Shown: one piece after another, positions 24,004-41,392 of the stretch
Layout of the letters: each line of letters starts with the position of its first letter
Numbering within the stretch: the first letter of the stretch is position 1
Assembly (NCBI GenBank): GCA_963667035.1
Contig: OY762964.1
Coordinates: 1,248,001 to 1,312,000, forward strand
Length of the DNA: 64,000 bases
Reading direction: 5' to 3'
Origin: Candidatus Cloacimonadales bacterium
Lineage (GTDB): Bacteria > Cloacimonadota > Cloacimonadia > Cloacimonadales > JAFGVF01
The notes under the pieces: model-generated
What the model was told of the DNA's origin: nothing
Database searches by the model: none
What the model saw: only the letters and a program-made list of their open reading frames with translations
Program-made: the position numbers and the translations under genes

Positions 24004-25299
24004 ATGAAAATACTTTTAACTAATGATGATGGAATCAATGCACCCGGAATTGTAATACTTGGGGAGCATTTAGTTAATGCAGGACACGATGTGTCTTATG
24101 TAGCACCTTCTGAACAGAAGAGTGCTTCTTCACATTCTATAACACTTTTTAAAGATATTGTTCTTACTAAGATTGAAGATAAGAAGTGGTCAGTATCAGG
24201 GACACCTGCAGACTGCATGGTTGTTGCAGCACAATATGTTTTGGACAGCAGTTTTGACTTAGTAATTTCGGGTATAAACGGTGGGCAAAATATGGGAGAA
24301 GATATATTCTATTCCGGTACTGTTGCCGCAGCTGCCGAAGCTTCATTTCAAGGTTATAAATCTGTTGCTATATCTATTGATACTTATCAAAACCAGAAGT
24401 ATGAGACTGCCGCAAAAATAATGGTTGATTTATTGGACAATGGTATTCGCGACATGATTAGTGATAATCACGTCTTAAACGTAAATGTTCCTAATATTGA
24501 TTATTCAGAAATCCGAGGTATTAAAGTCACTAGAAGCGGTAATAGATCTTATACTAATTTCTTGCGAGTTCAATCTCAGACAGAAACAGAGATGATTTAT
24601 CAAGTTGGTGGAGACTATCCTGATTGGTGTCTTCAACCTGGAACTGACTCCTTAGCTATTAAAAACAATTATATTTCAATCACTCCGCTTAAATTTGACT
24701 TGAACGAACTAAGCTTTCATCATGAGTTAAAAGACTGGAAATATAGATTTAATGATAAGTATACTGATAAGAAACCTATTCTGGAACCGGGCAAGAAACT
24801 GGATGTAAAGCGAACTGCTCAGAATATAACTGAGAAGGTTAAATCTATTGCAGTAGAATCCCCTGAAGAAAAAAAACTCAGAAAGATTCCTTTCTTTTCA
24901 AAGCTTACAACTATCCAATTGAAAAAACTATATACTTACTGTCATGTTAGACATTACAAAGCTGGTGAGATTATTTTTAAAGATAATCATCCCATCGTAG
25001 CTCTCTATATTATTCAAGAGGGAGAAGTCGCTATATATAAAGCTGAGGATATGGAGAACGCCGAGAAGATTTATACTAAAAATCAAACTCTTGGTGTTGT
25101 TGAAATGTTCAGTGGAGTAAAAAGGATGAATACTGCTGTTGCGAGTACAAACTGTACTCTCCTATCAATATCAAAGAGTGATTTCAATGAATTCCTTAAC
25201 AGAGACCCTAGAGCTGGTGCAAAAATACTGTTCGGTATAAGTAAATCATTCAGCCAATTCATTGTTAACAATAATTTCTTCTTTTTAAGAGAGGACTAA
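24004..25299 (+). CDS. surE: SurE 5'/3'-nucleotidase fused to a C-terminal cyclic-nucleotide-binding domain
   Basis: ILLTNDDG, SGTPADC, SGINGGQN and YSGTV; C-terminal GEIIF..LYIIQEGEV..R...AVA cNMP-domain pattern in the same ORF. Confidence 0.88.
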   Translation: MKILLTNDDGINAPGIVILGEHLVNAGHDVSYVAPSEQKSASSHSITLFKDIVLTKIEDKKWSVSGTPADCMVVAAQYVLDSSFDLVISGINGGQNMGEDIFYSGTVAAAAEASFQGYKSVAISIDTYQNQKYETAAKIMVDLLDNGIRDMISDNHVLNVNVPNIDYSEIRGIKVTRSGNRSYTNFLRVQSQTETEMIYQVGGDYPDWCLQPGTDSLAIKNNYISITPLKFDLNELSFHHELKDWKYRFNDKYTDKKPILEPGKKLDVKRTAQNITEKVKSIAVESPEEKKLRKIPFFSKLTTIQLKKLYTYCHVRHYKAGEIIFKDNHPIVALYIIQEGEVAIYKAEDMENAEKIYTKNQTLGVVEMFSGVKRMNTAVASTNCTLLSISKSDFNEFLNRDPRAGAKILFGISKSFSQFIVNNNFFFLRED

Positions 25300-27598: not shown

Positions 27599-27694
27599 AT
27601 TATAAATTTGGTTCACAATTGCTTTATATCACCTTTTGAATATGTTGTTACTCAAAGCTAACAATTCTGTTGACAGGATATATAGCCTAAACAT

Positions 27695-27710
27695 GTTAGC
27701 AAAAACTAAC
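27695..27710. promoter_or_regulatory. Putative DtxR/MntR-family operator
   Basis: Palindrome GTTAG-CAAAAA-CTAAC between TTGACA (27670) and the SD of the regulator gene. Confidence 0.55.
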
Positions 27711-27722
27711 TTAGGAGTTTTA

Positions 27723-28430
27723 ATGAGAGCGAACCTGAATGTATTAGGTGAAAGCTTAGAAGACTATCTTGAAACAATAATGCTCGCTCATAAAGAGCTG
27801 AAAAGAGTTAGAGTTACTGATGTTGCAGAAAGATTAAATGTAAAGAAGTCTTCTGTGAATTCAGCAATTAAGAAACTAGTTAATGCCGGATACATTGACC
27901 ATGAACGATATGGGGATATCCATCTTACAGAATCCGGTTTTAAGCTTGCCGAACAGATATACCAGAGACATAAATCTCTTACGGAGTTCTTAACCGTAAT
28001 ACTAGGTGTTAATGAAAAGACAGCTTCTCTAAACGCCTGTGCAATTGAACACCATTTAAATGAAGAAACATACTTAAGATTTATGTACCTTTATGAGTTT
28101 CTTTTAGAAGGTGAAAAGAATAACAATCTACTTACTGAACTACATGAATATATTAATACGAAACGCCATATATTAATGGCATCTAGAGAGATTACAACCA
28201 TTAAAGACCTAAGAATAGGTGAAACAGCTATAATAAAGAACTATTCGGAATCAACTGATAATGAATACAAAGCTAAGCTGTTAAGAATGGGGCTAATCAA
28301 GAATACTAAACTCAAAGTTGTTAGAGTTGCTCCTCTTGGAGATCCAATTGAGATATCGATTAATAACTATCATATCATGTTAAGAAAAGAGGAAGCTAAG
28401 TGTGTTGAAGTTGAGGTTATAGATGAATAA
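27723..28430 (+). CDS. DtxR/MntR-family metal-dependent repressor with C-terminal FeoA domain
   Basis: SLEDYLETI, HTH, IYQRH, ACAIEHHL; C-terminal LLRMGL..RVAPLGDPIEI..LRKEEA; ATG at 27723 after AGGAG. Confidence 0.9.
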   Translation: MRANLNVLGESLEDYLETIMLAHKELKRVRVTDVAERLNVKKSSVNSAIKKLVNAGYIDHERYGDIHLTESGFKLAEQIYQRHKSLTEFLTVILGVNEKTASLNACAIEHHLNEETYLRFMYLYEFLLEGEKNNNLLTELHEYINTKRHILMASREITTIKDLRIGETAIIKNYSESTDNEYKAKLLRMGLIKNTKLKVVRVAPLGDPIEISINNYHIMLRKEEAKCVEVEVIDE

Positions 28431-30837
28431 CAAAGAGATAAAAATAGCCCTAGCCGGTAATCCTAATTGCGGTAAAACAACTATTTTCAATGCTCTTACA
28501 GGGGCACAACAAACTGTTGGTAATTGGCCTGGAGTAACAGTAGAGCATAAAGAGGGTTATTTTGAATATAAAGGAAATAAGATAACTGTTATAGACTTAC
28601 CGGGGACATATTCTTTCTCGGCACTTTCTGAAGATGAACAAATAGCAAATAGCTTTGTTCAAAGCGGTCAAGCTGACTTAATCGTTAATGTGGTTGATGC
28701 TTCCAATCTTGAAAGGCATTTGTATCTGACTACTCAACTAATCGAAATGAAAGTACCGATGCTAGTTGTCCTAAACATGATGGATGTTGCAAAGACAAAC
28801 AGTATTAAGATTGATATTATGCATCTTTCCAAGCATTTGGATTGTCCTGTTGTAACAACAATTGCCAATCGTAGAAGTGATGGACTGGCATCACTAAAAG
28901 AAGCAATAATCAACATTGAACCCAACAAAGTATCATCTACAATAATAAGATATGATGATTTTTTTGAATCACATTTATCTGAAATTACAGAGTTACTTAT
29001 TAAGAAGGATTTACCTGAGAATGTAGATCCACGTTGGCTAGCACTGAAGATGTTTGAAGACAATTATCAGTATTGTAATAGACAGAGAGGTTCCGGCAAT
29101 GGTCATGGACACGGGCATCGAGGAAGACATGGTATACAGGAAGCACCTGATGGTATTAACGAGCATTCGTTTATGCGTCATCGTAAGTTTAGAAATCGTA
29201 TTCGTAGAACTATCGAGAACGAATCTTTAAAGTTTTATCTGGATGACGAGTTCTCAAGTAAACTCAATGAGATTAATGAAAGAGTTAGAAGGCATACAAG
29301 AGATGAGATAGATGTTGTAATTGCTGACGGACGTTACGGTTTTATTAGAGGACTGGCAAAAGATGTTATCCATAGAAGTACTCTCAGGCGTAATGTAACG
29401 GAACTTATAGATAATGTTGTGCTAAACAGATTCATGGGAATACCAAGTTTCTTTATAGTGCTTTTCTTAGTGTTCTATTTAACAATTAATGTAGGAACTC
29501 CTTTTATAGATTTCTTTGATTCACTAATGGGTGCAATATTCGTTGATGGATTCGCCAATCTACTTATGGCTCTTCATTCTCCCAACTGGTTAATTAATAT
29601 CCTAGCCTATAGTATCGGTGGAGGTATTCAGACTGTTTCAACCTTTATCCCACCGATTTTCTTCATATTCGTGTCATTGGCAATACTTGAAGATTCGGGA
29701 TATATGTCCAGGGCAGCATTTGTGATGGATCGTTTTCTTAGGTTCATCGGATTACCGGGTAAAGCTTTTATTCCTTTAATGGTAGGATTCGGATGTACTG
29801 TTCCTGCAATTCTGGCTACCAGAACATTAGAGAATAAGCGAGAAAGATTAATAGCCATCATGATGACTCCATTTATGTCATGTGGAGCCAGGTTCCCGGT
29901 TTATGCACTATTTATATCACTATTCTTTGCTAAATCCGGAAGTTATGTACTCTTTGGAATATATTTACTTGGTATCATATTGGCAATACTTACAGGGCTT
30001 CTTTTTAAGAAGACTATTTTTCAAGGTGAAACCTCAACTTTTGTTATGGAGCTTCCCCCCTATCATATACCAACTCTAAGAGGAATAATGACTCATACAT
30101 GGTTTAGGTTGAAAGCTTTCATTCAAAAGGCCGGAGCAATGATTCTTGTACTCGTTATTATCTTAAATATTTTCGGGAATATAGGGCTTGATGGTAAGTT
30201 TGGAGAAAAGAGTGAAAGTGACTCTATTCTAACCGGATTTGGTAAACTTATTACTCCTATATTCAAACCTATGGGAATAGATTCTGACAACTGGGAAGCA
30301 TCTGTTGGTCTTGTAACGGGATTGTTTGCTAAAGAAGCCGTTATTGGTACTTTGAGTGTTCTTTATAAAGATGAGATAGCTGAAGATAGTAATGTTGAGG
30401 CAAATAACGAGGAGTTTAAACTTCTGCCGGCAATAGGCTCATCATTTGTTGTGTTGTGGGATGGATTCTTTGGAAGTGAAGATGATAGTGAGAATACTGA
30501 TGAGGATAATTCCCTCAGACCTATCATGCAAAAGAAATTTAAATCCAAAGCTAATGTTTTAGCATATCTGATATTTATATTGATATATGCTCCTTGTATA
30601 GCAGCTGTTGGTACTATTTTTAATGAAACTAACGGCAAGTGGACATGGATAATTGTTGCATATCTAACAGGTTTGGCATGGATTATTTCTATGCTGTTCT
30701 ATCAATCAGCAACTTTCTTCGCACACCCGGGTAGCTCATCATTGTGGATTGTTGCAGGATTAGCGGTTATAGCTTCATTTTATTTGTTCTTAAGACATAG
30801 AGGTAAGCAACTTCAAGGTAGAATTAATTATTGGTAA
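28423..30837 (+). CDS. feoB: Ferrous iron transporter B
   Basis: GNPNCGKT, VGNWPGVTVE, DLPGTYS, EDSGYMSR, GFGCTVPA and MELPPY motifs. Confidence 0.95.
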   Translation: MNNKEIKIALAGNPNCGKTTIFNALTGAQQTVGNWPGVTVEHKEGYFEYKGNKITVIDLPGTYSFSALSEDEQIANSFVQSGQADLIVNVVDASNLERHLYLTTQLIEMKVPMLVVLNMMDVAKTNSIKIDIMHLSKHLDCPVVTTIANRRSDGLASLKEAIINIEPNKVSSTIIRYDDFFESHLSEITELLIKKDLPENVDPRWLALKMFEDNYQYCNRQRGSGNGHGHGHRGRHGIQEAPDGINEHSFMRHRKFRNRIRRTIENESLKFYLDDEFSSKLNEINERVRRHTRDEIDVVIADGRYGFIRGLAKDVIHRSTLRRNVTELIDNVVLNRFMGIPSFFIVLFLVFYLTINVGTPFIDFFDSLMGAIFVDGFANLLMALHSPNWLINILAYSIGGGIQTVSTFIPPIFFIFVSLAILEDSGYMSRAAFVMDRFLRFIGLPGKAFIPLMVGFGCTVPAILATRTLENKRERLIAIMMTPFMSCGARFPVYALFISLFFAKSGSYVLFGIYLLGIILAILTGLLFKKTIFQGETSTFVMELPPYHIPTLRGIMTHTWFRLKAFIQKAGAMILVLVIILNIFGNIGLDGKFGEKSESDSILTGFGKLITPIFKPMGIDSDNWEASVGLVTGLFAKEAVIGTLSVLYKDEIAEDSNVEANNEEFKLLPAIGSSFVVLWDGFFGSEDDSENTDEDNSLRPIMQKKFKSKANVLAYLIFILIYAPCIAAVGTIFNETNGKWTWIIVAYLTGLAWIISMLFYQSATFFAHPGSSSLWIVAGLAVIASFYLFLRHRGKQLQGRINYW

Positions 30838-33535: not shown

Positions 33536-33700
33536 ATGATAATTTCTCTGTTTATTACATTAATGGGTGTGATCCTCATACTTCTTGGCATTGTTATGAT
33601 GTTTTTTCTTGAGGTGAACAGACCCTTAGGAATAATTCTAATTGCAGTTGGTTTATTGGTTTTAATTAGAGGAACACGACAGAATGGTAGGAAGTCATGA
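33536..33700 (+). CDS. Small two-TM membrane protein (54 aa), not in the ORF track
   Basis: MIISLFITLMGVILILLGIVMMFFLEVNRPLGIILIAVGLLVLIRGTRQNGRKS; SD AAGGAA; TTGACA 47 nt upstream. Confidence 0.65.
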   Translation: MIISLFITLMGVILILLGIVMMFFLEVNRPLGIILIAVGLLVLIRGTRQNGRKS

Positions 33701-33775: not shown

Positions 33776-34726
33776 ATGAAACAAATAATCTTGAAACAAG
33801 CGATGATGAACAGAGTTCTCTATTCCCTTGTTCCGATTATAATTATGGCAATCTATCTGTTTGGATGGAAGGTTCTCGCAGTTTTGGCCGTAACAAACGG
33901 AATTGGATTTCTAACGGAATACTTGTTCATTAGAAAGAAGAAAATTGGTAAAGTATCTATGGCTGTTTTTGTCACAGGTACATTACTCGGACTTATTCTG
34001 CCACCTTCGATTCCTCTTTGGATAGCTGCAGTAGCTTCTGCCTTTGGAGTGGCTTTCGGTAAGATGGTTTTCGGTGGATTTGGTCTCAATATCTTCAATC
34101 CTGCAATTGTTGGAAGAGCTTTCGTTTATATCTCTTTTCCCAAACAGTTAGCAACAACATGGAATCATATATACTCAGGTTTTCCCGGAGGATTTGCTCA
34201 CTTTAATCCTGCCCCTGAGCTAACAACTTCGGCTACAATGCTTGCTCAATATAGAAACACCGGAGAGTTTGGTTACTCATTTTGGGATAGCTTTGCCGGA
34301 CTCATCCCCGGTAGCATCGGTGAAACAAGTACACTATTGATACTTATAGCAGGAATATATCTGATAATAACAAAGACAGCAAAGTGGCAAGCTATGGTCT
34401 CAACTCTACTTGGATTCATTATTACTACAGCTATTTTTTATCCTATGAGTCAAATGCATTTCTTCCTTACAGGTGCAGGCATTATGTTTGGTACTGTCTT
34501 CATGTCTACCGATCCTGTATCTCAAGCTAAACATCCTAAAGCTTTATGGATTTACGGAATCATGATTGGTTTTCTGACTGTATTTATTAGACGCTTCTCA
34601 CTCTTTGCTGAAGGTTTCATGTTTGCAATTCTCCTGGCGAACTGTTTTATGCCTTTAATTGACTACTTCTTCCAAGAGGCAGACAAAAAGAAAAAGTTAA
34701 AAGCAAAGGCGGTCCAGAATGGATAA
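33776..34726 (+). CDS. NqrB/RnfD-family membrane subunit
   Basis: FGGFGLNIFNPA, TSAT (FMN-Thr site), GSIGETS and TDPVS. Confidence 0.9.
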   Translation: MKQIILKQAMMNRVLYSLVPIIIMAIYLFGWKVLAVLAVTNGIGFLTEYLFIRKKKIGKVSMAVFVTGTLLGLILPPSIPLWIAAVASAFGVAFGKMVFGGFGLNIFNPAIVGRAFVYISFPKQLATTWNHIYSGFPGGFAHFNPAPELTTSATMLAQYRNTGEFGYSFWDSFAGLIPGSIGETSTLLILIAGIYLIITKTAKWQAMVSTLLGFIITTAIFYPMSQMHFFLTGAGIMFGTVFMSTDPVSQAKHPKALWIYGIMIGFLTVFIRRFSLFAEGFMFAILLANCFMPLIDYFFQEADKKKKLKAKAVQNG

Positions 34727-35357
34727 AGAAAAGAAAACATTCTCAGAGACCAACTTCTACCCTATCTTTTTTATGGTTGTGTTAACTATCATTTTCATTG
34801 GTTTACTCTCAGTGATTTATCACATGAATCTGGAGAGAATAAACAGTAATCAACTTAGCCAGTATCAATCAACAATTACAGGTTTGTTCAGTAGCTATTT
34901 TGATACAGATAAATCTTCGAGTGAATTATATAAAGAACACTTTAAAGAAATAACTACTGATACCCGAACATATTACGAAGTAAGTAAAGACGGCTCTTTG
35001 ATTGGCTATTGTTATGTCATCAACGGTCAGGGACTTTGGGGTTCAATGAAAGCCTTGATTGCCTTGACTCCTGATTTACATAACATCATCAATCTTGATG
35101 TTTATCAACATCTTGAGACTCCAGGACTTGGTGGTCGTATTGATGAAGAATGGTTCAAACAGCAATTTAACAATAAAGTCATTGTAGTTGATGGTAAACC
35201 TATTAAGTATGTACTGATTCCGGAAGGTTCGGATAATGTTAAAGCTACCGAGATGATGCAAGTTACAGGAGCTTCCAGAACTAGTGAAGGTGTCAGAAAT
35301 ATGCTCTATAATGAAACGTTGTCTATTTTAAAAGAGATGAAAGGAGGTACTGAATAA
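34719..35357 (+). CDS. NqrC/RnfG-family FMN-binding subunit
   Basis: N-terminal TM, GQGLWG, ETPGLG and VTGASRTS. Confidence 0.88.
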   Translation: MDKEKKTFSETNFYPIFFMVVLTIIFIGLLSVIYHMNLERINSNQLSQYQSTITGLFSSYFDTDKSSSELYKEHFKEITTDTRTYYEVSKDGSLIGYCYVINGQGLWGSMKALIALTPDLHNIINLDVYQHLETPGLGGRIDEEWFKQQFNNKVIVVDGKPIKYVLIPEGSDNVKATEMMQVTGASRTSEGVRNMLYNETLSILKEMKGGTE

Positions 35358-35959
35358 TGACTAAGAAACAAATATTTATGAACAGTGCCTTCACAGATAA
35401 CTCAATCTGGAAGCAGATACTTGGCATCTGCTCCAGTTTAGCGGTAACCAATCTAATGATGAATAGTCTCATAATGGGACTTGGTGTTATCTTTGCTCTG
35501 GTGATGGCGAATTTCACTATCTCATTAGTGAGAAATTATACTCCTAGAAGCGTTAGAATGATGGTCCAAACACTTATCATTGCAGCTTATGTTATTATTG
35601 TCGATATATTCTTGAAAGCTTATTTACCTGAGATAAGTAAGAATTTAGGACCTTATATCGGACTAATCATCACTAACTGTATACTTATGGGAAGAGCAGA
35701 GGCTTTTGCTGCTAAGAATAGTCCTTTGGATTCAATGATGGATGGACTTGGGGCAGGAGTGGGGTATACACTTGTGCTACTTGCTATTGCTACCGTTAGA
35801 GAGTTATTCGGATTTGGTTCTCTATTTGGAATACAGATACTGGGAAACTGGTGGGTAAGCTGGTCTATTATGATTATGGCTCCAAGTGCATTTTTCTTGC
35901 TTGCAATCATGATTTGGATTATAAACAATAACTTTTATCAAAAGAAGAAACAGGGGTAA
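35357..35959 (+). CDS. NqrD/RnfE-family subunit
   Basis: QILGICSSLAVT and LIITNCILMGRAEAFA. Confidence 0.9.
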   Translation: MTKKQIFMNSAFTDNSIWKQILGICSSLAVTNLMMNSLIMGLGVIFALVMANFTISLVRNYTPRSVRMMVQTLIIAAYVIIVDIFLKAYLPEISKNLGPYIGLIITNCILMGRAEAFAAKNSPLDSMMDGLGAGVGYTLVLLAIATVRELFGFGSLFGIQILGNWWVSWSIMIMAPSAFFLLAIMIWIINNNFYQKKKQG

Positions 35960-35962
35960 GTC

Positions 35963-36550
35963 ATGGAAATAAATCCTTTTGTTCTCTTTTTCGCATCAAT
36001 ATTCACAAGTAATATTCTTTTAAGTAATTTCTTAGGAATGTGTTCATATCTATCAGTTTCTAAAGAGATAGAATCATCTTTCGGATTAGGTATGGCAGTA
36101 TTTTTTGTCTCTACGGTTTCGGTTGCATTGAACTGGCTTGTTTATCACTATATTCTGGTGCCGTTCAATCTTGTATACTTGCAATATATAGTATTCATCA
36201 TTGTAATTGCTGCTTTTGTTCAATTGACCGAGATAATCATAGAACGATTCTCGCCGGTGTTGTATTACTCACTGGGAATATTCCTTCCGTTGATTACAGT
36301 AAATTGTGCAATTCTTGGAGTCTCTTTGTTTATGATTATTAGAAACTATAGTTTTATCCAGTCCGTTCTCTTTGGTGCAGGCTCAGGACTTGGTTGGTTA
36401 TTGGCAATCATGATGCTAGCAGGTATTCGTCAAAGAGTTAAAGAAAAACTTGTTCCGGTTGGTTTACAAGGAGCAGGTTTAAGCTTAATAATCACAGGAA
36501 TTATGGCATTGGCCTTTATCGGGTTTTCCGGTATAGTAAATGTTCAGTAA
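35963..36550 (+). CDS. NqrE/RnfA-family subunit
   Basis: FLGMCSYLSVSK and FLPLITVNCAILG. Confidence 0.9.
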   Translation: MEINPFVLFFASIFTSNILLSNFLGMCSYLSVSKEIESSFGLGMAVFFVSTVSVALNWLVYHYILVPFNLVYLQYIVFIIVIAAFVQLTEIIIERFSPVLYYSLGIFLPLITVNCAILGVSLFMIIRNYSFIQSVLFGAGSGLGWLLAIMMLAGIRQRVKEKLVPVGLQGAGLSLIITGIMALAFIGFSGIVNVQ

Positions 36551-36562
36551 GGAGAGTTATTA

Positions 36563-37666
36563 ATGATAATATTAATTGTTAAAGAAGTTCTCCTGTTAGT
36601 TGTATTATTCGGGATTCTTACTGCCATGATTGTCGTAGCAAAAATGATTTTCAGTAATTACGGAGATTGCAAAATCACTATAAACAATAAGAGAGAAGTA
36701 GTAGTTAAAGGTGGGGCTTCCCTACTTTCCAGTTTAGCTGAAAATGATGTATTCATACCTTCCGCTTGTGGTGGAAGAGGTTCATGCGGAGCTTGTAAGT
36801 GTAAAGTTACTTCAGGTGGCGGTCCACTTCTTCCTACAGAGAAACCTTTCATGGATAAGAAAGAATTATCAGGCAATATTCGTTTATCATGTCAGGTAAA
36901 GGTTAAAGAAGATATCAATATCAACATTCCTGAAGAGATTTTCAATGTCCGAAAGTTTAAAGCTAAGATAGCAAAGATAGTAGACTATACTCACGATATT
37001 AAAGGTATCACGTTTGAGTTTATAGATCCCCCTGAAATTGATTTCAAATCGGGTCAATATGTTCAATTGATTACTCAAAGATACGGTAAGCAAAAGCAAA
37101 GCGTTTCAAGAGCTTACTCTATCTCATCCAAGCCTTCGGATAGTAAACACCTACAACTTATTATCAGAAGAGTACCTGATGGTATTTGTACAACATGGGT
37201 GCATGATTATTTGAAAGAAGGTGATATAGTTGATATTACTGGTCCCTATGGTGATTTCTTTATCAGAGACACAGAAGCCGATATAATCTATGTTGCAGGA
37301 GGTTCAGGTAAAGCTCCAATCAAGAGTATGCTTGAGGACTTAGCGGAGAAAGGTACGGATAGAAGAATGGCATATTTCTTTGGAGCTCAGAGTAAGAGAG
37401 ATCTTTATTTAACTGAAGAGATGCACTCTTATGAAGAGAAGTTCGCTGATTTCACATATTATCCTGTTCTGTCTAGTCCTACCGAAGAAGACAAATGGGA
37501 TGGTAGAACCGGATTTGTTATGCCATACTTTAAAGAGTTTATTAAAGACCCTAAGAATACGGAAGCATACCTTTGCGGAAGTCCCAGAATGATTGATGCT
37601 GTATGTGCCGAACTCGAAAAAATGGGTGTTCCAAAAGATAAGATTTATTTCGATAGCTTTGTCTAA
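36563..37666 (+). CDS. NqrF-like membrane-anchored [2Fe-2S]/FAD/NAD(P)H oxidoreductase
   Basis: N-terminal TM; SACGGRGSCGAC..RLSCQ; RAYS; GPYG; AGGSG; YLCGSP; C-terminal FDSF. Confidence 0.88.
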   Translation: MIILIVKEVLLLVVLFGILTAMIVVAKMIFSNYGDCKITINNKREVVVKGGASLLSSLAENDVFIPSACGGRGSCGACKCKVTSGGGPLLPTEKPFMDKKELSGNIRLSCQVKVKEDININIPEEIFNVRKFKAKIAKIVDYTHDIKGITFEFIDPPEIDFKSGQYVQLITQRYGKQKQSVSRAYSISSKPSDSKHLQLIIRRVPDGICTTWVHDYLKEGDIVDITGPYGDFFIRDTEADIIYVAGGSGKAPIKSMLEDLAEKGTDRRMAYFFGAQSKRDLYLTEEMHSYEEKFADFTYYPVLSSPTEEDKWDGRTGFVMPYFKEFIKDPKNTEAYLCGSPRMIDAVCAELEKMGVPKDKIYFDSFV

Positions 37667-37677
37667 AGAGGATAATT

Positions 37678-38127
37678 ATGAAGCAAACTGAAAAAGAGAT
37701 GCAAATTCAAAATAGAATGCAACCGGGGATCATCTCATCTGAGGGCTTTTTAGGTGATGACAGCCGCCATATTCACGATATTATAGCTGATGATGAAAAG
37801 ACTCTTGAGATGCTTGATGTTACACCTGAAGAGATTGCCGATAAGTTGCAGACTTTGACCGATATTGCTTATCAAAGCCCTTATGGTCCAATTGAGTTTG
37901 AGAAATTTACATTAGAGTATCTCTCCTATCGTGGGAAAGTTATCTGTCCTTTTGTTGATCCGGGTGTATATGTTAAGGCTGTCATCAAGCTTATCGATAA
38001 AGATAAATTGATAGAGTTCAGTTGGACTCCCCTACACATTCATATGATAAGAGAACATCACTTCTTCGAGGGTAAGGGTTCCAAGTTCAGACTTGAGCCT
38101 GAGCTTCTAGTAAAGTGTTTATTCTAA
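37678..38127 (+). CDS. Hypothetical protein, last gene of the Nqr/Rnf-like operon
   Basis: SD GAGG, starts 11 nt after the previous stop, terminator follows; GFLGDD, CPF and HIHMIREHHFFEG motifs. Confidence 0.75.
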   Translation: MKQTEKEMQIQNRMQPGIISSEGFLGDDSRHIHDIIADDEKTLEMLDVTPEEIADKLQTLTDIAYQSPYGPIEFEKFTLEYLSYRGKVICPFVDPGVYVKAVIKLIDKDKLIEFSWTPLHIHMIREHHFFEGKGSKFRLEPELLVKCLF

Positions 38128-38151: not shown

Positions 38152-38180
38152 AGGGCACGTTTATCGTGCCCTATTGTTTT
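38152..38180 (+). terminator. Intrinsic terminator
   Basis: AGGGCACG-TTTAT-CGTGCCCT followed by ATTGTTTT. Confidence 0.7.
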
Positions 38181-38287
38181 ATGACAATCTTTCCAGCTTA
38201 TCCCTTAACAAACTCTTTAGTTGACGCAAATGGGTTTCATTGTGATAAGGTTCTAATTAGATTTAAAACTAAGATTTTGAGGTTGAT

Positions 38288-39729: not shown

Positions 39730-41392
39730 CAGATTGTTGACAAAAACATTCTAATTTACATGGATATATTGTTGAAAGTCATTTTTCTTCATTTTAACTG
39801 AGTCCAAACCTAAACATGCGAGATTTAGCTCTATTTTCGTGTAAATTGGAGTTGAAAATCATGTAATTGATGATAAATTTTGCTATTAATTTCCCTAATT
39901 TACCTTTGAAAAGGTATTTTACGAGTTTCTTGATATTTTGCACGATAGCTGTTAGATAAGCTTGTTCTCGAACTCGCTCTATTCCTCGATATTTTGCATA
40001 TCGGTAGCCATGAAGTTGCTTTGCATTGGCAAAGCTTCTCTCAATGGTTTCTTTTCTCCTCTTGTATATCTCTTTCCCACATAATGTTAACCTATTCTTG
40101 TGGATTATCTCTTTGCTCTCTTCCCAGACATGACGAGTGATTACTTTTTGAGAAGACTTACTTTCTGTACATTTACTTAGCATTGGACAATTCTTGCATT
40201 CACTAGGATTCGACTTGTATTCTTTATAGCCATCACGGCTCGTTGTTCTATAATTTAACTCTTTATTACATGGACAAATGTAAACATCCTTCCGGGAATT
40301 ATATGTAAATTTGTTCTTTTTAAATAGACCTTTCTTACCTCCCTGTCTTTTGTAGCCAAGGACTCCCATAATATTCATATCTACCAGTTGCTTACAAATG
40401 TTAATTGTATCATATCCTGAATCAAGCCCTACTGCCTGAACATTAAAACCATAAACCTTTTGTTGGAACTGTAACCTGTCAATATAGCAGGTGCTATCAT
40501 TTACATTGCCGGGAGTAATGTGAACATCGGTTATATAGTTCGTTTTATGGTCGACTGTCCTATGATCTAAGTAGAAGAAGCCTTGAGGCTTTCTATCACG
40601 GGTCATAAAACCACTATCGGGATCTGTTGTGCTAGACTTGATATTTTTTACTTTAGGTGATGCTCCTCCTTTAAGATTGTTATCCTTAGGAGGTAAAGGT
40701 TTCTTACCATGAGCCTTCCGATCTTCATCAACGCTTGTGTTAAGATCTTCCAAGTAACTCTTGGAGGATACCTCAACTTCAATATCCTCGAATTTACCTT
40801 TATTAGCATTTGCCTTTAGATGGGTTGAGTCGCTATAAAGTATCTTCCCATCAACTAATCCATGTTTAATGCCTAACTTCACTATATCTATAAAAATCTC
40901 TTCGAATACGCTGCTATCATTAAATCGCCTTCTACGATTTTGACTGAAGACTGAGTGATGAGGTACTTTATCAGTTAGTCCAAAGCCTAAGAACCAACGA
41001 TAAGCCACATTGACCTCAATCTCTTTGACCAATTGTCTTTCCGAGCGAATACCGAATAGATAGCCAATAAAAAGCATTTTGAAAAGAGTAATAGGATGAA
41101 TTGGAGGACGACCGGTAGTAGAACAATACAAATGCACTGTTCTATCTAAAATGAATGAAAAATCTATTACGCTATCGATTTTCCTTAGTATGTGATCTAC
41201 CGGTACTAAATCATCTATTATTACAAACTCCATTTGGGACTGTGTGTCAGAAACTTTTTTAAGCATAACCACCTCTAATTATGATGGTTTAAGTATAATA
41301 TTTGGAGAAATCTGTCAATGATTGATGTTCTTATTTTAAGCTAAAAAAAGACAAAGCTATGAAATCTTACTCATAGCTTTGTCAACAGTCTG
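39730..41392 (-). mobile_element. IS1182-family insertion sequence, copy 2 (1663 bp)
   Basis: Same terminal IRs and length as copy 1; I spotted only three base differences. Confidence 0.95.
39794..41272 (-). CDS. IS1182-family DDE transposase
   Basis: Identical to the copy 1 protein except for one Ala/Val change (DRTAH vs DRTVH). Confidence 0.92.
   Translation of the reverse strand: MVMLKKVSDTQSQMEFVIIDDLVPVDHILRKIDSVIDFSFILDRTVHLYCSTTGRPPIHPITLFKMLFIGYLFGIRSERQLVKEIEVNVAYRWFLGFGLTDKVPHHSVFSQNRRRRFNDSSVFEEIFIDIVKLGIKHGLVDGKILYSDSTHLKANANKGKFEDIEVEVSSKSYLEDLNTSVDEDRKAHGKKPLPPKDNNLKGGASPKVKNIKSSTTDPDSGFMTRDRKPQGFFYLDHRTVDHKTNYITDVHITPGNVNDSTCYIDRLQFQQKVYGFNVQAVGLDSGYDTINICKQLVDMNIMGVLGYKRQGGKKGLFKKNKFTYNSRKDVYICPCNKELNYRTTSRDGYKEYKSNPSECKNCPMLSKCTESKSSQKVITRHVWEESKEIIHKNRLTLCGKEIYKRRKETIERSFANAKQLHGYRYAKYRGIERVREQAYLTAIVQNIKKLVKYLFKGKLGKLIAKFIINYMIFNSNLHENRAKSRMFRFGLS

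Follow-up and report, generated by a model that had tools for sequence, protein, structure and literature searches.

Here we describe a six-gene operon in a 64,000-nucleotide stretch of the Candidatus Cloacimonadales bacterium genome (assembly GCA_963667035.1, contig OY762964.1, positions 1,248,001 to 1,312,000 of the forward strand; hereafter the window), which codes for a member of the Nqr/Rnf class of membrane-bound redox complexes that has no NqrA subunit. The complex is real, intact and widespread, and its five-gene layout is already known; it has a conserved sixth component and its acceptor has been open in print since 2014. Judging from sequence and gene context, we tentatively favor, at a little short of even confidence, the reading that it is a quinone-independent membrane NAD(P)H:rubredoxin oxidoreductase that probably pumps Na+. 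The broader proposal that it represents a third branch of the Rnf/NQR assemblage, coupling NAD(P)H-dependent rubredoxin reduction to Na+ export, with a new-fold protein that binds the reductase and leaves with it as a soluble pair, is as a whole doubtful.

Architecture of the operon

The operon comprises five abutting open reading frames (ORFs) on the forward strand in the order B-C-D-E-F, followed by a sixth, X, as established by ORF calls and family profiles. B (NqrB/RnfD family, PF03116; 316 aa) spans 33776..34726, C (NqrC/RnfG family, FMN_bind domain; 212 aa) 34719..35357, D (NqrD/RnfE, PF02508; 200 aa) 35357..35959, E (NqrE/RnfA, PF02508; 195 aa) 35963..36550 and F, a compact NqrF of 367 aa combining Fer2 (PF00111), FAD_binding_6 (PF00970) and NAD_binding_1 (PF00175) domains, 36563..37666. 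X (37678..38127), separated from F by an 11-base gap, codes for a soluble, conserved 149-aa protein that belongs to no Pfam or NCBIfam family and is a probable partner of F. Neither nqrA nor rnfC nor rnfB adjoins BCDEF at this locus. The NCBIfam scores of the subunits fall between the Nqr and Rnf families: B barely exceeds the threshold of rnfD (207.2 vs 207.05) and lies below that of nqrB (201.8 vs 349.9), D is just above the cut-off of one NqrD model (236.5 vs 235), and F scores 294 bits with the nqrF model, whose cut-off is 295.

The initial annotation, made from the sequence alone, had recognized the gene order, two covalent flavin mononucleotide (FMN) sites and NQR-like Cys motifs in D and E, as well as a short B devoid of the N-terminal extension of NqrB and a compact F, all of which are confirmed here. 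The FMN motifs are TSAT at B151-154 (Thr154) and TGAS at C183-186; the acceptor in C is thus a serine in this protein, and 72 of 79 distinct relatives have TGAT. The membrane [2Fe-2S] cysteines are Cys25 and Cys108 of D together with Cys27 and Cys115 of E, and F consists of a membrane anchor, a [2Fe-2S] site (Cys69/75/78/110), an FAD domain and an NAD(P) domain. Every cofactor site of the NQR wire is accordingly in place: FAD and [2Fe-2S] in F, [2Fe-2S] in D/E, FMN in C, and FMN and riboflavin in B. F is without two insertions of the canonical NqrF, and its sequence does not discriminate NADH from NADPH.

Residue conservation in the B subunit

We compared 83 distinct B sequences of NqrA-less (A-less) complexes in Vibrio cholerae numbering, using the riboflavin ligands, FMN threonine and Na+-gate phenylalanines of NqrB named in the accessible text of Hau et al. 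2023 (PMC10643135). The riboflavin ligands G198, N200, N203 and A205, the FMN Thr/Ser and D/E346 are kept in 83/83, T/S162 in 82/83, and the gate residues F338 and F342 in 68/83 each. The B protein of the window, whose nearest solved relative is V. cholerae NqrB, retains the riboflavin ligands, the FMN Thr, R209 and the Na+-gate Phe; its riboflavin Asp is B246. The quinone pocket is closed by N-terminal helices according to the available part of a review (PMC12174285), and these helices are missing from 83/83 A-less B proteins. E157 is retained in only 18 of them, and the G141 position is a Phe in this B; G141 is also absent in two of seven canonical rows, which are menaquinone-using. The N-terminal arm of RnfD is described as buried in RnfC in the accessible text of Vitt et al. 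2022 (PMC9588780); its motif is found in 24/25 RnfD proteins, in 6/6 B proteins from operons with an Fe-S-bearing NqrA (see below) and in 0/83 A-less B proteins. On the evidence of these residues the electron wire is intact, and both known exits from riboflavin, the quinone pocket and the RnfC anchor, are gone.

Host genome and distribution of the A-less complex

The genome, a single contig that is 98% complete, appears to make no quinone. Searches with UbiA-family prenyltransferase profiles returned 0 matches in it (14/14 controls were detected), and no MenG/UbiE was found above cut-off. NqrA models likewise gave nothing above cut-off over the genome, their only matches being a sub-cut-off hit of the N-terminal domain in an unrelated locus and RnfC itself; there is thus no orphan nqrA. 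The same genome encodes ApbE and a separate, complete rnfCDGEAB operon (G000:C1:1921349-1926537), so the absence of rnfC and rnfB reported in the initial annotation holds for the locus and fails genome-wide. It further carries genes recognized by sequence as coding for rubredoxin, rubrerythrin, desulfoferrodoxin, ferritin and a flavodiiron protein, with rubredoxin being family-confirmed; the rubredoxin-reductase domain PF18267 is absent from it.

Among the loci of the closest relatives, 21/22 are titled Cloacimonadota. Across 177 genomes of this phylum A-less B occurs in 116, F in 123 and X in 125, which speaks against a local rearrangement, and a comparison of the lists places F and X together in 120. 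The three genomes with F only are explained by a contig end (G036), an operon with an Fe-S-bearing NqrA (G115) and a canonical NQR (G145). In a Desulfobacterota sample X is present in 11/201 genomes, each time directly after F and in 10 of the 11 with a matching B. Ilyobacter polytropus also has BCDEF and X, with F immediately before X, and further X homologues bear source names such as Sphaerochaeta and Tissierellia (names only). Neither NqrA nor RnfC was seen in any of 80 metagenome loci chosen by X, 30 of which extend 1.5 kb or more upstream of B. The A-less complex is intact and its conservation spans three phyla or more, and a distinct complex of the Nqr/Rnf type with an unknown acceptor, as initially proposed, is upheld. 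A few Cloacimonadota (L190, L191, L192) also have canonical nqrABCDEF, grouping with Bacteroidota rows. Two loci (L142, L144) show D-E-F-X without B-C; we rejected these as a separate module, the locus being interrupted by an integrase.

Phylogeny and Fe-S-bearing forms of NqrA

A careful tree of concatenated B, D and E sequences (33 rows, LG+G4) recovers the A-less complexes as one clade (100/99) and canonical NQR as its sister group (99/97); Rnf falls outside both, in a clade of its own (100/100). The sampling covers seven canonical B sequences in all, with Chlamydia and Chlorobi left out, and two rows with long branches and partly mis-called frames (L217, L184) were excluded from the concatenated trees and the residue counts. 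A quick tree from B only places the A-less group instead as sister to all A-bearing forms, and an A-less group as the earliest offshoot is compatible with the data (approximately unbiased (AU) test p 0.175). Nesting of the A-less sequences in canonical NQR together with Bacteroidota-type rows is rejected (AU p 2.5e-34).

Below the A-less and canonical NQR groups lie operons that start with an NqrA-like gene keeping two CxxCxxCxxxCP motifs, followed by B-C-D(-E-F). These were observed at L189:6015-11515 (G115) and, in the Desulfobacterota sample, at L212, L214, L216, L218 and L229. Their NqrA-like proteins share the NqrA-specific insertion and are without the ECEP motif of RnfC; F is seen downstream in one of the operons (L189), the remaining loci being too short. 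It is compact there too, and a compact F is thus ancestral. These operons are basal to the NqrF-bearing group and look, from sequence, like the true intermediates between Rnf and NQR. RnfC and NqrA are homologous according to the accessible part of an earlier study (PMC4014512), and hence under either tree the A/C subunit was lost on the A-less stem, making the A-less group a side branch rather than a step towards NQR. The suggestion that the complex of the window is itself an evolutionary intermediate is accordingly not sustained under either topology, and the NqrA proteins with two 4Fe-4S motifs fit that role better.

X, a sixth component linked to the F subunit

The initial annotation had raised the possibility of a novel subunit and pointed to two small ORFs. 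The 149-aa ORF, X, indeed proves to be the sixth gene of the unit, with F directly before it in 73/73 metagenome loci that have upstream sequence, in 18/18 Cloacimonadota loci reaching past F and in 11/11 Desulfobacterota X loci. The upstream 54-aa ORF was found in 1/21 Cloacimonadota loci, that of the closest relative, where it is 54% identical. In one genus, genes for TPR histidine kinases are placed between F and X (L234:5739-7655, L235:5208-9115).

X has 1813 matches at E 0.001 among 50%-identity representatives; phages yielded none and plasmids a single one. Its predicted structure is of high confidence (predicted local distance difference test (pLDDT) score 96.8) and has no Foldseek match at E 0.001; the best VIA-align Z among 48,161 chains is 2.6 (root-mean-square deviation 3.3, 62 aligned), and the absence of a fold match in a modelled structure does not prove a new fold. 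An Atlas search with X returned hypothetical-protein clusters only. X itself does not match DUF7919 (PF25535), four distant homologues score 16.6-23.6 bits with it (cut-off 27), and 13% of one Atlas cluster carries this domain. Distant X-like domains also occur in 2-3 repeats or in long proteins devoid of a redox domain (P0031, P0106, P0115, P0151, P0163, P0175), which show weak similarity to DUF7919. In 59 operon-linked copies R30, D39, G86, K100, F129, G132 and R138 are invariant and H122 and H127 nearly so; there is no invariant Cys, Cys90 being present in 47/59. Scanning of 21 longer or extended homologues revealed two fusions to rubredoxin (P0096, a cluster of 3 sequences, and P0086) and one each to rubrerythrin, nitroreductase and AhpC.

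Three genomes from two phyla, one of them (G079) a single contig, lack the A-less core and keep an anchor-less F together with X (L243:2971-7513 in G114, L067:10799-12277 in G079 and L236:725-2240 in G314), with intact catalytic residues in the two anchor-less F proteins that were checked. In G114, whose genome also has a canonical NQR, the pair closes an operon of a flavodiiron protein and three rubrerythrin-like genes. This persistence without the core ties X to F. Prediction of a complex of F(33-367) with X gives an interface score (ipSAE) of 0.53, vs 0.11 for the best of 3 controls, with at least 73% of contacts agreeing between runs and a partner pLDDT of at least 86. In calibration the mark was reached by 116/157 solved complexes and 2/215 mismatched pairs, and scores up to 0.60 held only 18 of the solved complexes and both mismatches; the model thus lends weak support to F-X binding. 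A correlation of F and X distances (r 0.79) was discarded as evidence of interaction, since it reflects shared descent.

Gene-context links to rubredoxin and oxygen defence

The gene immediately following X codes for rubredoxin in 9/67 metagenome loci, and a rubredoxin gene lies within 4 kb of X in 11/35. Some diiron, desulfoferrodoxin or flavodiiron gene is found within the same distance in 16/35, and any such oxygen-defence gene in 1/17 control Rnf/NQR loci. Rubredoxin also follows X in 2/7 extended Desulfobacterota loci, and in one Cloacimonadota family at least 12/21 genomes have a rubredoxin cluster upstream of B at a distance of no more than 5 kb, a linkage that counts as one event, the genomes being kin. 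Fur/PerR-family regulators and zwf-pgl are present in some of the rubredoxin-linked clusters, and no other neighbor recurs across phyla among the 54 flanking proteins scanned. Moreover, PF18267 was detected in 0/177 genomes of the phylum and rubredoxin in 156, which together suggest a vacant rubredoxin-reductase role.

Proposed function and alternatives

On the reading that we favor, NAD(P)H would be oxidized at F and, as family knowledge leads one to expect, electrons would travel from F via D/E and C to B, with single electrons crossing the membrane and returning. They would reach riboflavin on the cytoplasmic side of B, Na+ (or H+) being moved out as in NQR, and would pass to a small soluble one-electron carrier, which gene context suggests is most likely rubredoxin. 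The latter could then feed flavodiiron protein, rubrerythrin and desulfoferrodoxin. X would bind F, take the place of NqrA as an adaptor or scaffold, and recruit the carrier. For an exit at riboflavin, a carrier of single electrons is well suited. Between NADH at about -320 mV and rubredoxin at about 0 mV there is energy enough for one Na+ per electron.

Several observations weigh against rubredoxin as the acceptor or X as its adaptor. Most A-less loci, that of the window included, are without rubredoxin linkage; here the flanking genes code for a MATE transporter and an asparaginase, and the rubredoxin gene lies ~1 Mb from the complex. After merging of near-copies the count of loci with rubredoxin next to X falls to 7/46 at 90% identity and 1/20 at 70%. 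One family (f14) has rubredoxin in 6/6 genomes and B in 0/6; genomes without the A-less complex show the same reductase vacancy, and since many of them have rubredoxin other reductases exist, nor need PF18267 cover all rubredoxin reductases. Four of the five redox fusions of X are single sequences and possible read-through artefacts, and the remaining extended homologues have no redox domain and are fused to unrelated sequence; these look like a distant branch outside the system. G177 has A-less BCDEF in which X was not found, five genomes of one genus have X without F and B, and the closest relative has its X gene broken into two frames (L013:11903-12354, the same region as G089), reflecting either an assembly error or recent decay. 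Finally, the soluble F+X pairs suggest that electrons could already pass to the carrier from F, without involving the pump. In the two inspected genomes of the genus with X only (G004, L066:7453-7908; G006, L082:6677-7150) X is intact at its ancestral position and BCDEF is deleted.

Reduction of rubredoxin at F itself is the main rival, improbable in our estimation: F and X alone would constitute the rubredoxin reductase, with X presenting rubredoxin to the [2Fe-2S] cluster of F and the pump bypassed, and the membrane core would serve another exchange, for example feeding F from a low-potential carrier docked at B or providing overflow to another acceptor. The three anchor-less pairs, one of them inside an oxygen-defence operon, the weakly predicted F-X binding and the kinship of F with the soluble reductases of oxygenases, enzymes that pass electrons to small iron proteins, all accord with this. 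However, the great majority of genomes keep a cofactor-complete core (B in 116/177), which needs a partner at B, and the pair in G079 looks like the product of a recent deletion, E-F-X being retained at that position in G078, a member of the same genus. A different acceptor altogether we consider improbable; candidates would be free flavin, flavodoxin, a ferredoxin-like protein, electron-transfer flavoprotein (ETF), a flavoprotein of the nitroreductase type, or an external metal or shuttle to which an outward-facing C FMN gives access, X then being a maturation or regulatory factor of F. Such an acceptor would agree with the lack of an oxygen-defence neighbor at most loci, with the nitroreductase gene upstream of B in several Cloacimonadota and its single fusion to X, with the lack of an invariant Cys in X, and with a metal reducer carrying the cluster, to which the accessible text of Manzoor et al. 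(PMC5924567) points. Against it, the 54 flanking proteins hold no competing neighbor recurrent across phyla, and the conserved cytoplasmic-side riboflavin ligands of B make an exit on the inside probable; ETF is not among the annotated neighbors, no family search having been aimed at it.

The two remaining explanations assign the complex to established partners. An ordinary NADH:quinone reductase acting on scavenged quinone without NqrA, or else a decaying NQR operon, is very improbable. V. cholerae NqrB is indeed the nearest solved B, G141 is not absolute given the two menaquinone-using canonical rows, and the accessible text of a genome paper annotates the Cloacimonadota Nqr as quinone-linked (PMC8542988). 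Nevertheless, the quinone helices and the UbiA family are missing, E157 is scarce, the complex is intact and conserved in at least three phyla, and its nesting in canonical NQR is rejected. The idea that RnfC is borrowed from the rnf operon, yielding an ion-coupled NADH/NADP+ transhydrogenase, had been raised in the initial annotation. A complete rnf operon does coexist here, as it does in the accessible accounts of published cases, and zwf and pgl upstream in a few loci hint at NADP(H). The RnfD arm that RnfC buries is, however, missing from every A-less B, and F is without a conserved Ser-Arg at 304-305, which we take to be an NADP-type motif; we accordingly regard this as the least probable explanation.

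Relationship to known systems

The A-less gene order itself is not new. In their accessible text Goker et al. 2014 (PMC4148951) reported NqrBCDEF without NqrA in Thermotoga thermarum and T. lettingae (Pseudothermotoga thermarum Theth_1137-1141 and P. lettingae Tlet_0865-0869), calling the second reactant unknown, and Manzoor et al. 2018 (PMC5924567) described the same layout beside a full Rnf in C. ultunense (CUESP_0375-0379). NqrBCDEF is also listed in Ca. Izimaplasma ZiA1 in the available part of PMC6256511. As far as these accounts are accessible, the published clusters agree with ours in the BCDEF order, the absence of nqrA, a separate rnfCDGEAB and an acceptor stated to be unknown, and the accounts speak neither of a sixth gene or a rubredoxin link nor of a tree or residue analysis; the orthology of these clusters to the present complex is presumed from layout. 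What is new beyond them is the tree with the Fe-S-NqrA forms, the loss of the RnfC arm and the soluble F+X pairs that tie X to F. A literature search, with most subscription journals outside its coverage, found nothing on the sixth gene, the rubredoxin link or Fe-S-bearing NqrA, and the accessible parts of PMC2702500 and PMC12052999 add nothing on A-less or Fe-S-NqrA forms. The supplements of PMC4014512 (trees) and PMC12174285 (alignments) may hold such sequences.

Na+-NQR (V. cholerae; PDB 7XK3, 8A1T), the sister group in the concatenated tree, has homologous BCDEF subunits in the same order, with the same cofactor residues and gate Phe and an NqrF with anchor, [2Fe-2S], FAD and NADH domains like the F described here; the retained F338/F342 would be consistent with Na+ export of the same kind. 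In contrast to it, the present complex has no NqrA, no quinone helices in B, an F minus two insertions and the additional X, in a host without quinone prenyltransferase. Rnf (RnfCDGEAB; Clostridium tetanomorphum 7ZC6, Acetobacterium woodii 9ERI, Azotobacter vinelandii 8AHX) has a membrane core of similar size, and B just reaches the rnfD cut-off; unlike Rnf, the operon has no RnfB or RnfC, uses an NqrF-type reductase as input and lacks the RnfC-anchoring arm, its subunits falling outside the Rnf clade. Soluble NAD(P)H:rubredoxin oxidoreductases (PF18267 flavoproteins) would catalyze the same proposed reaction, a likeness drawn solely from context, namely that F+X sits in operons alongside flavodiiron protein and rubrerythrin genes. 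These are of the pyridine nucleotide-disulfide type, to which F, an FNR-like protein with a [2Fe-2S] cluster, is unrelated, and the complex here is membrane-bound and possibly ion-pumping.

The complex is common (beyond the 116/177 Cloacimonadota also in Desulfobacterota and Fusobacteriota), and annotations routinely call it a quinone reductase in organisms that seem to make no quinone; the accessible text of PMC8542988 treats the Cloacimonadota Nqr as an ordinary one. If rubredoxin reduction with Na+ pumping is true, it would give obligate anaerobes a miniature respiratory chain that runs to oxygen without quinone, and would add a third output mode to the Rnf/NQR core; quinone-less strict fermenters would thereby gain energy while removing oxygen and peroxide. 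The question is testable, as all six genes are present in a cultured, non-pathogenic strain, Ilyobacter polytropus DSM 2926 (ILYOP_RS10220-RS10195), and the soluble F+X pairs occur naturally. The NqrA proteins with Fe-S motifs offer a separate handle on the origin of NQR from Rnf.

Other features of the window

Just past X lies a terminator-like hairpin with a T tract (38152..38182, forward strand; hairpin 38152-38172), whose position suggests that the transcript ends after X; it is a pattern match only, with four such patterns found in the region vs 3.1 expected. A downstream 54-aa ORF overlaps this hairpin. A promoter scan remained at chance level (23 vs 23.3). Upstream of B, the hydrophobic 54-aa ORF at 33536-33700, conserved (54%) only in the closest relative, is probably a real small membrane protein and not a general part of the system. 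An insertion-sequence transposase (DDE_Tnp_1_6, DUF772; 39794-41272) lies downstream of the asparaginase gene. At 27636-30837, 3 kb upstream of the operon, a DtxR-FeoA fusion is followed by feoB, and at 24004-25299 a 431-aa protein fuses SurE to a cyclic-nucleotide-binding domain, an unusual pairing.

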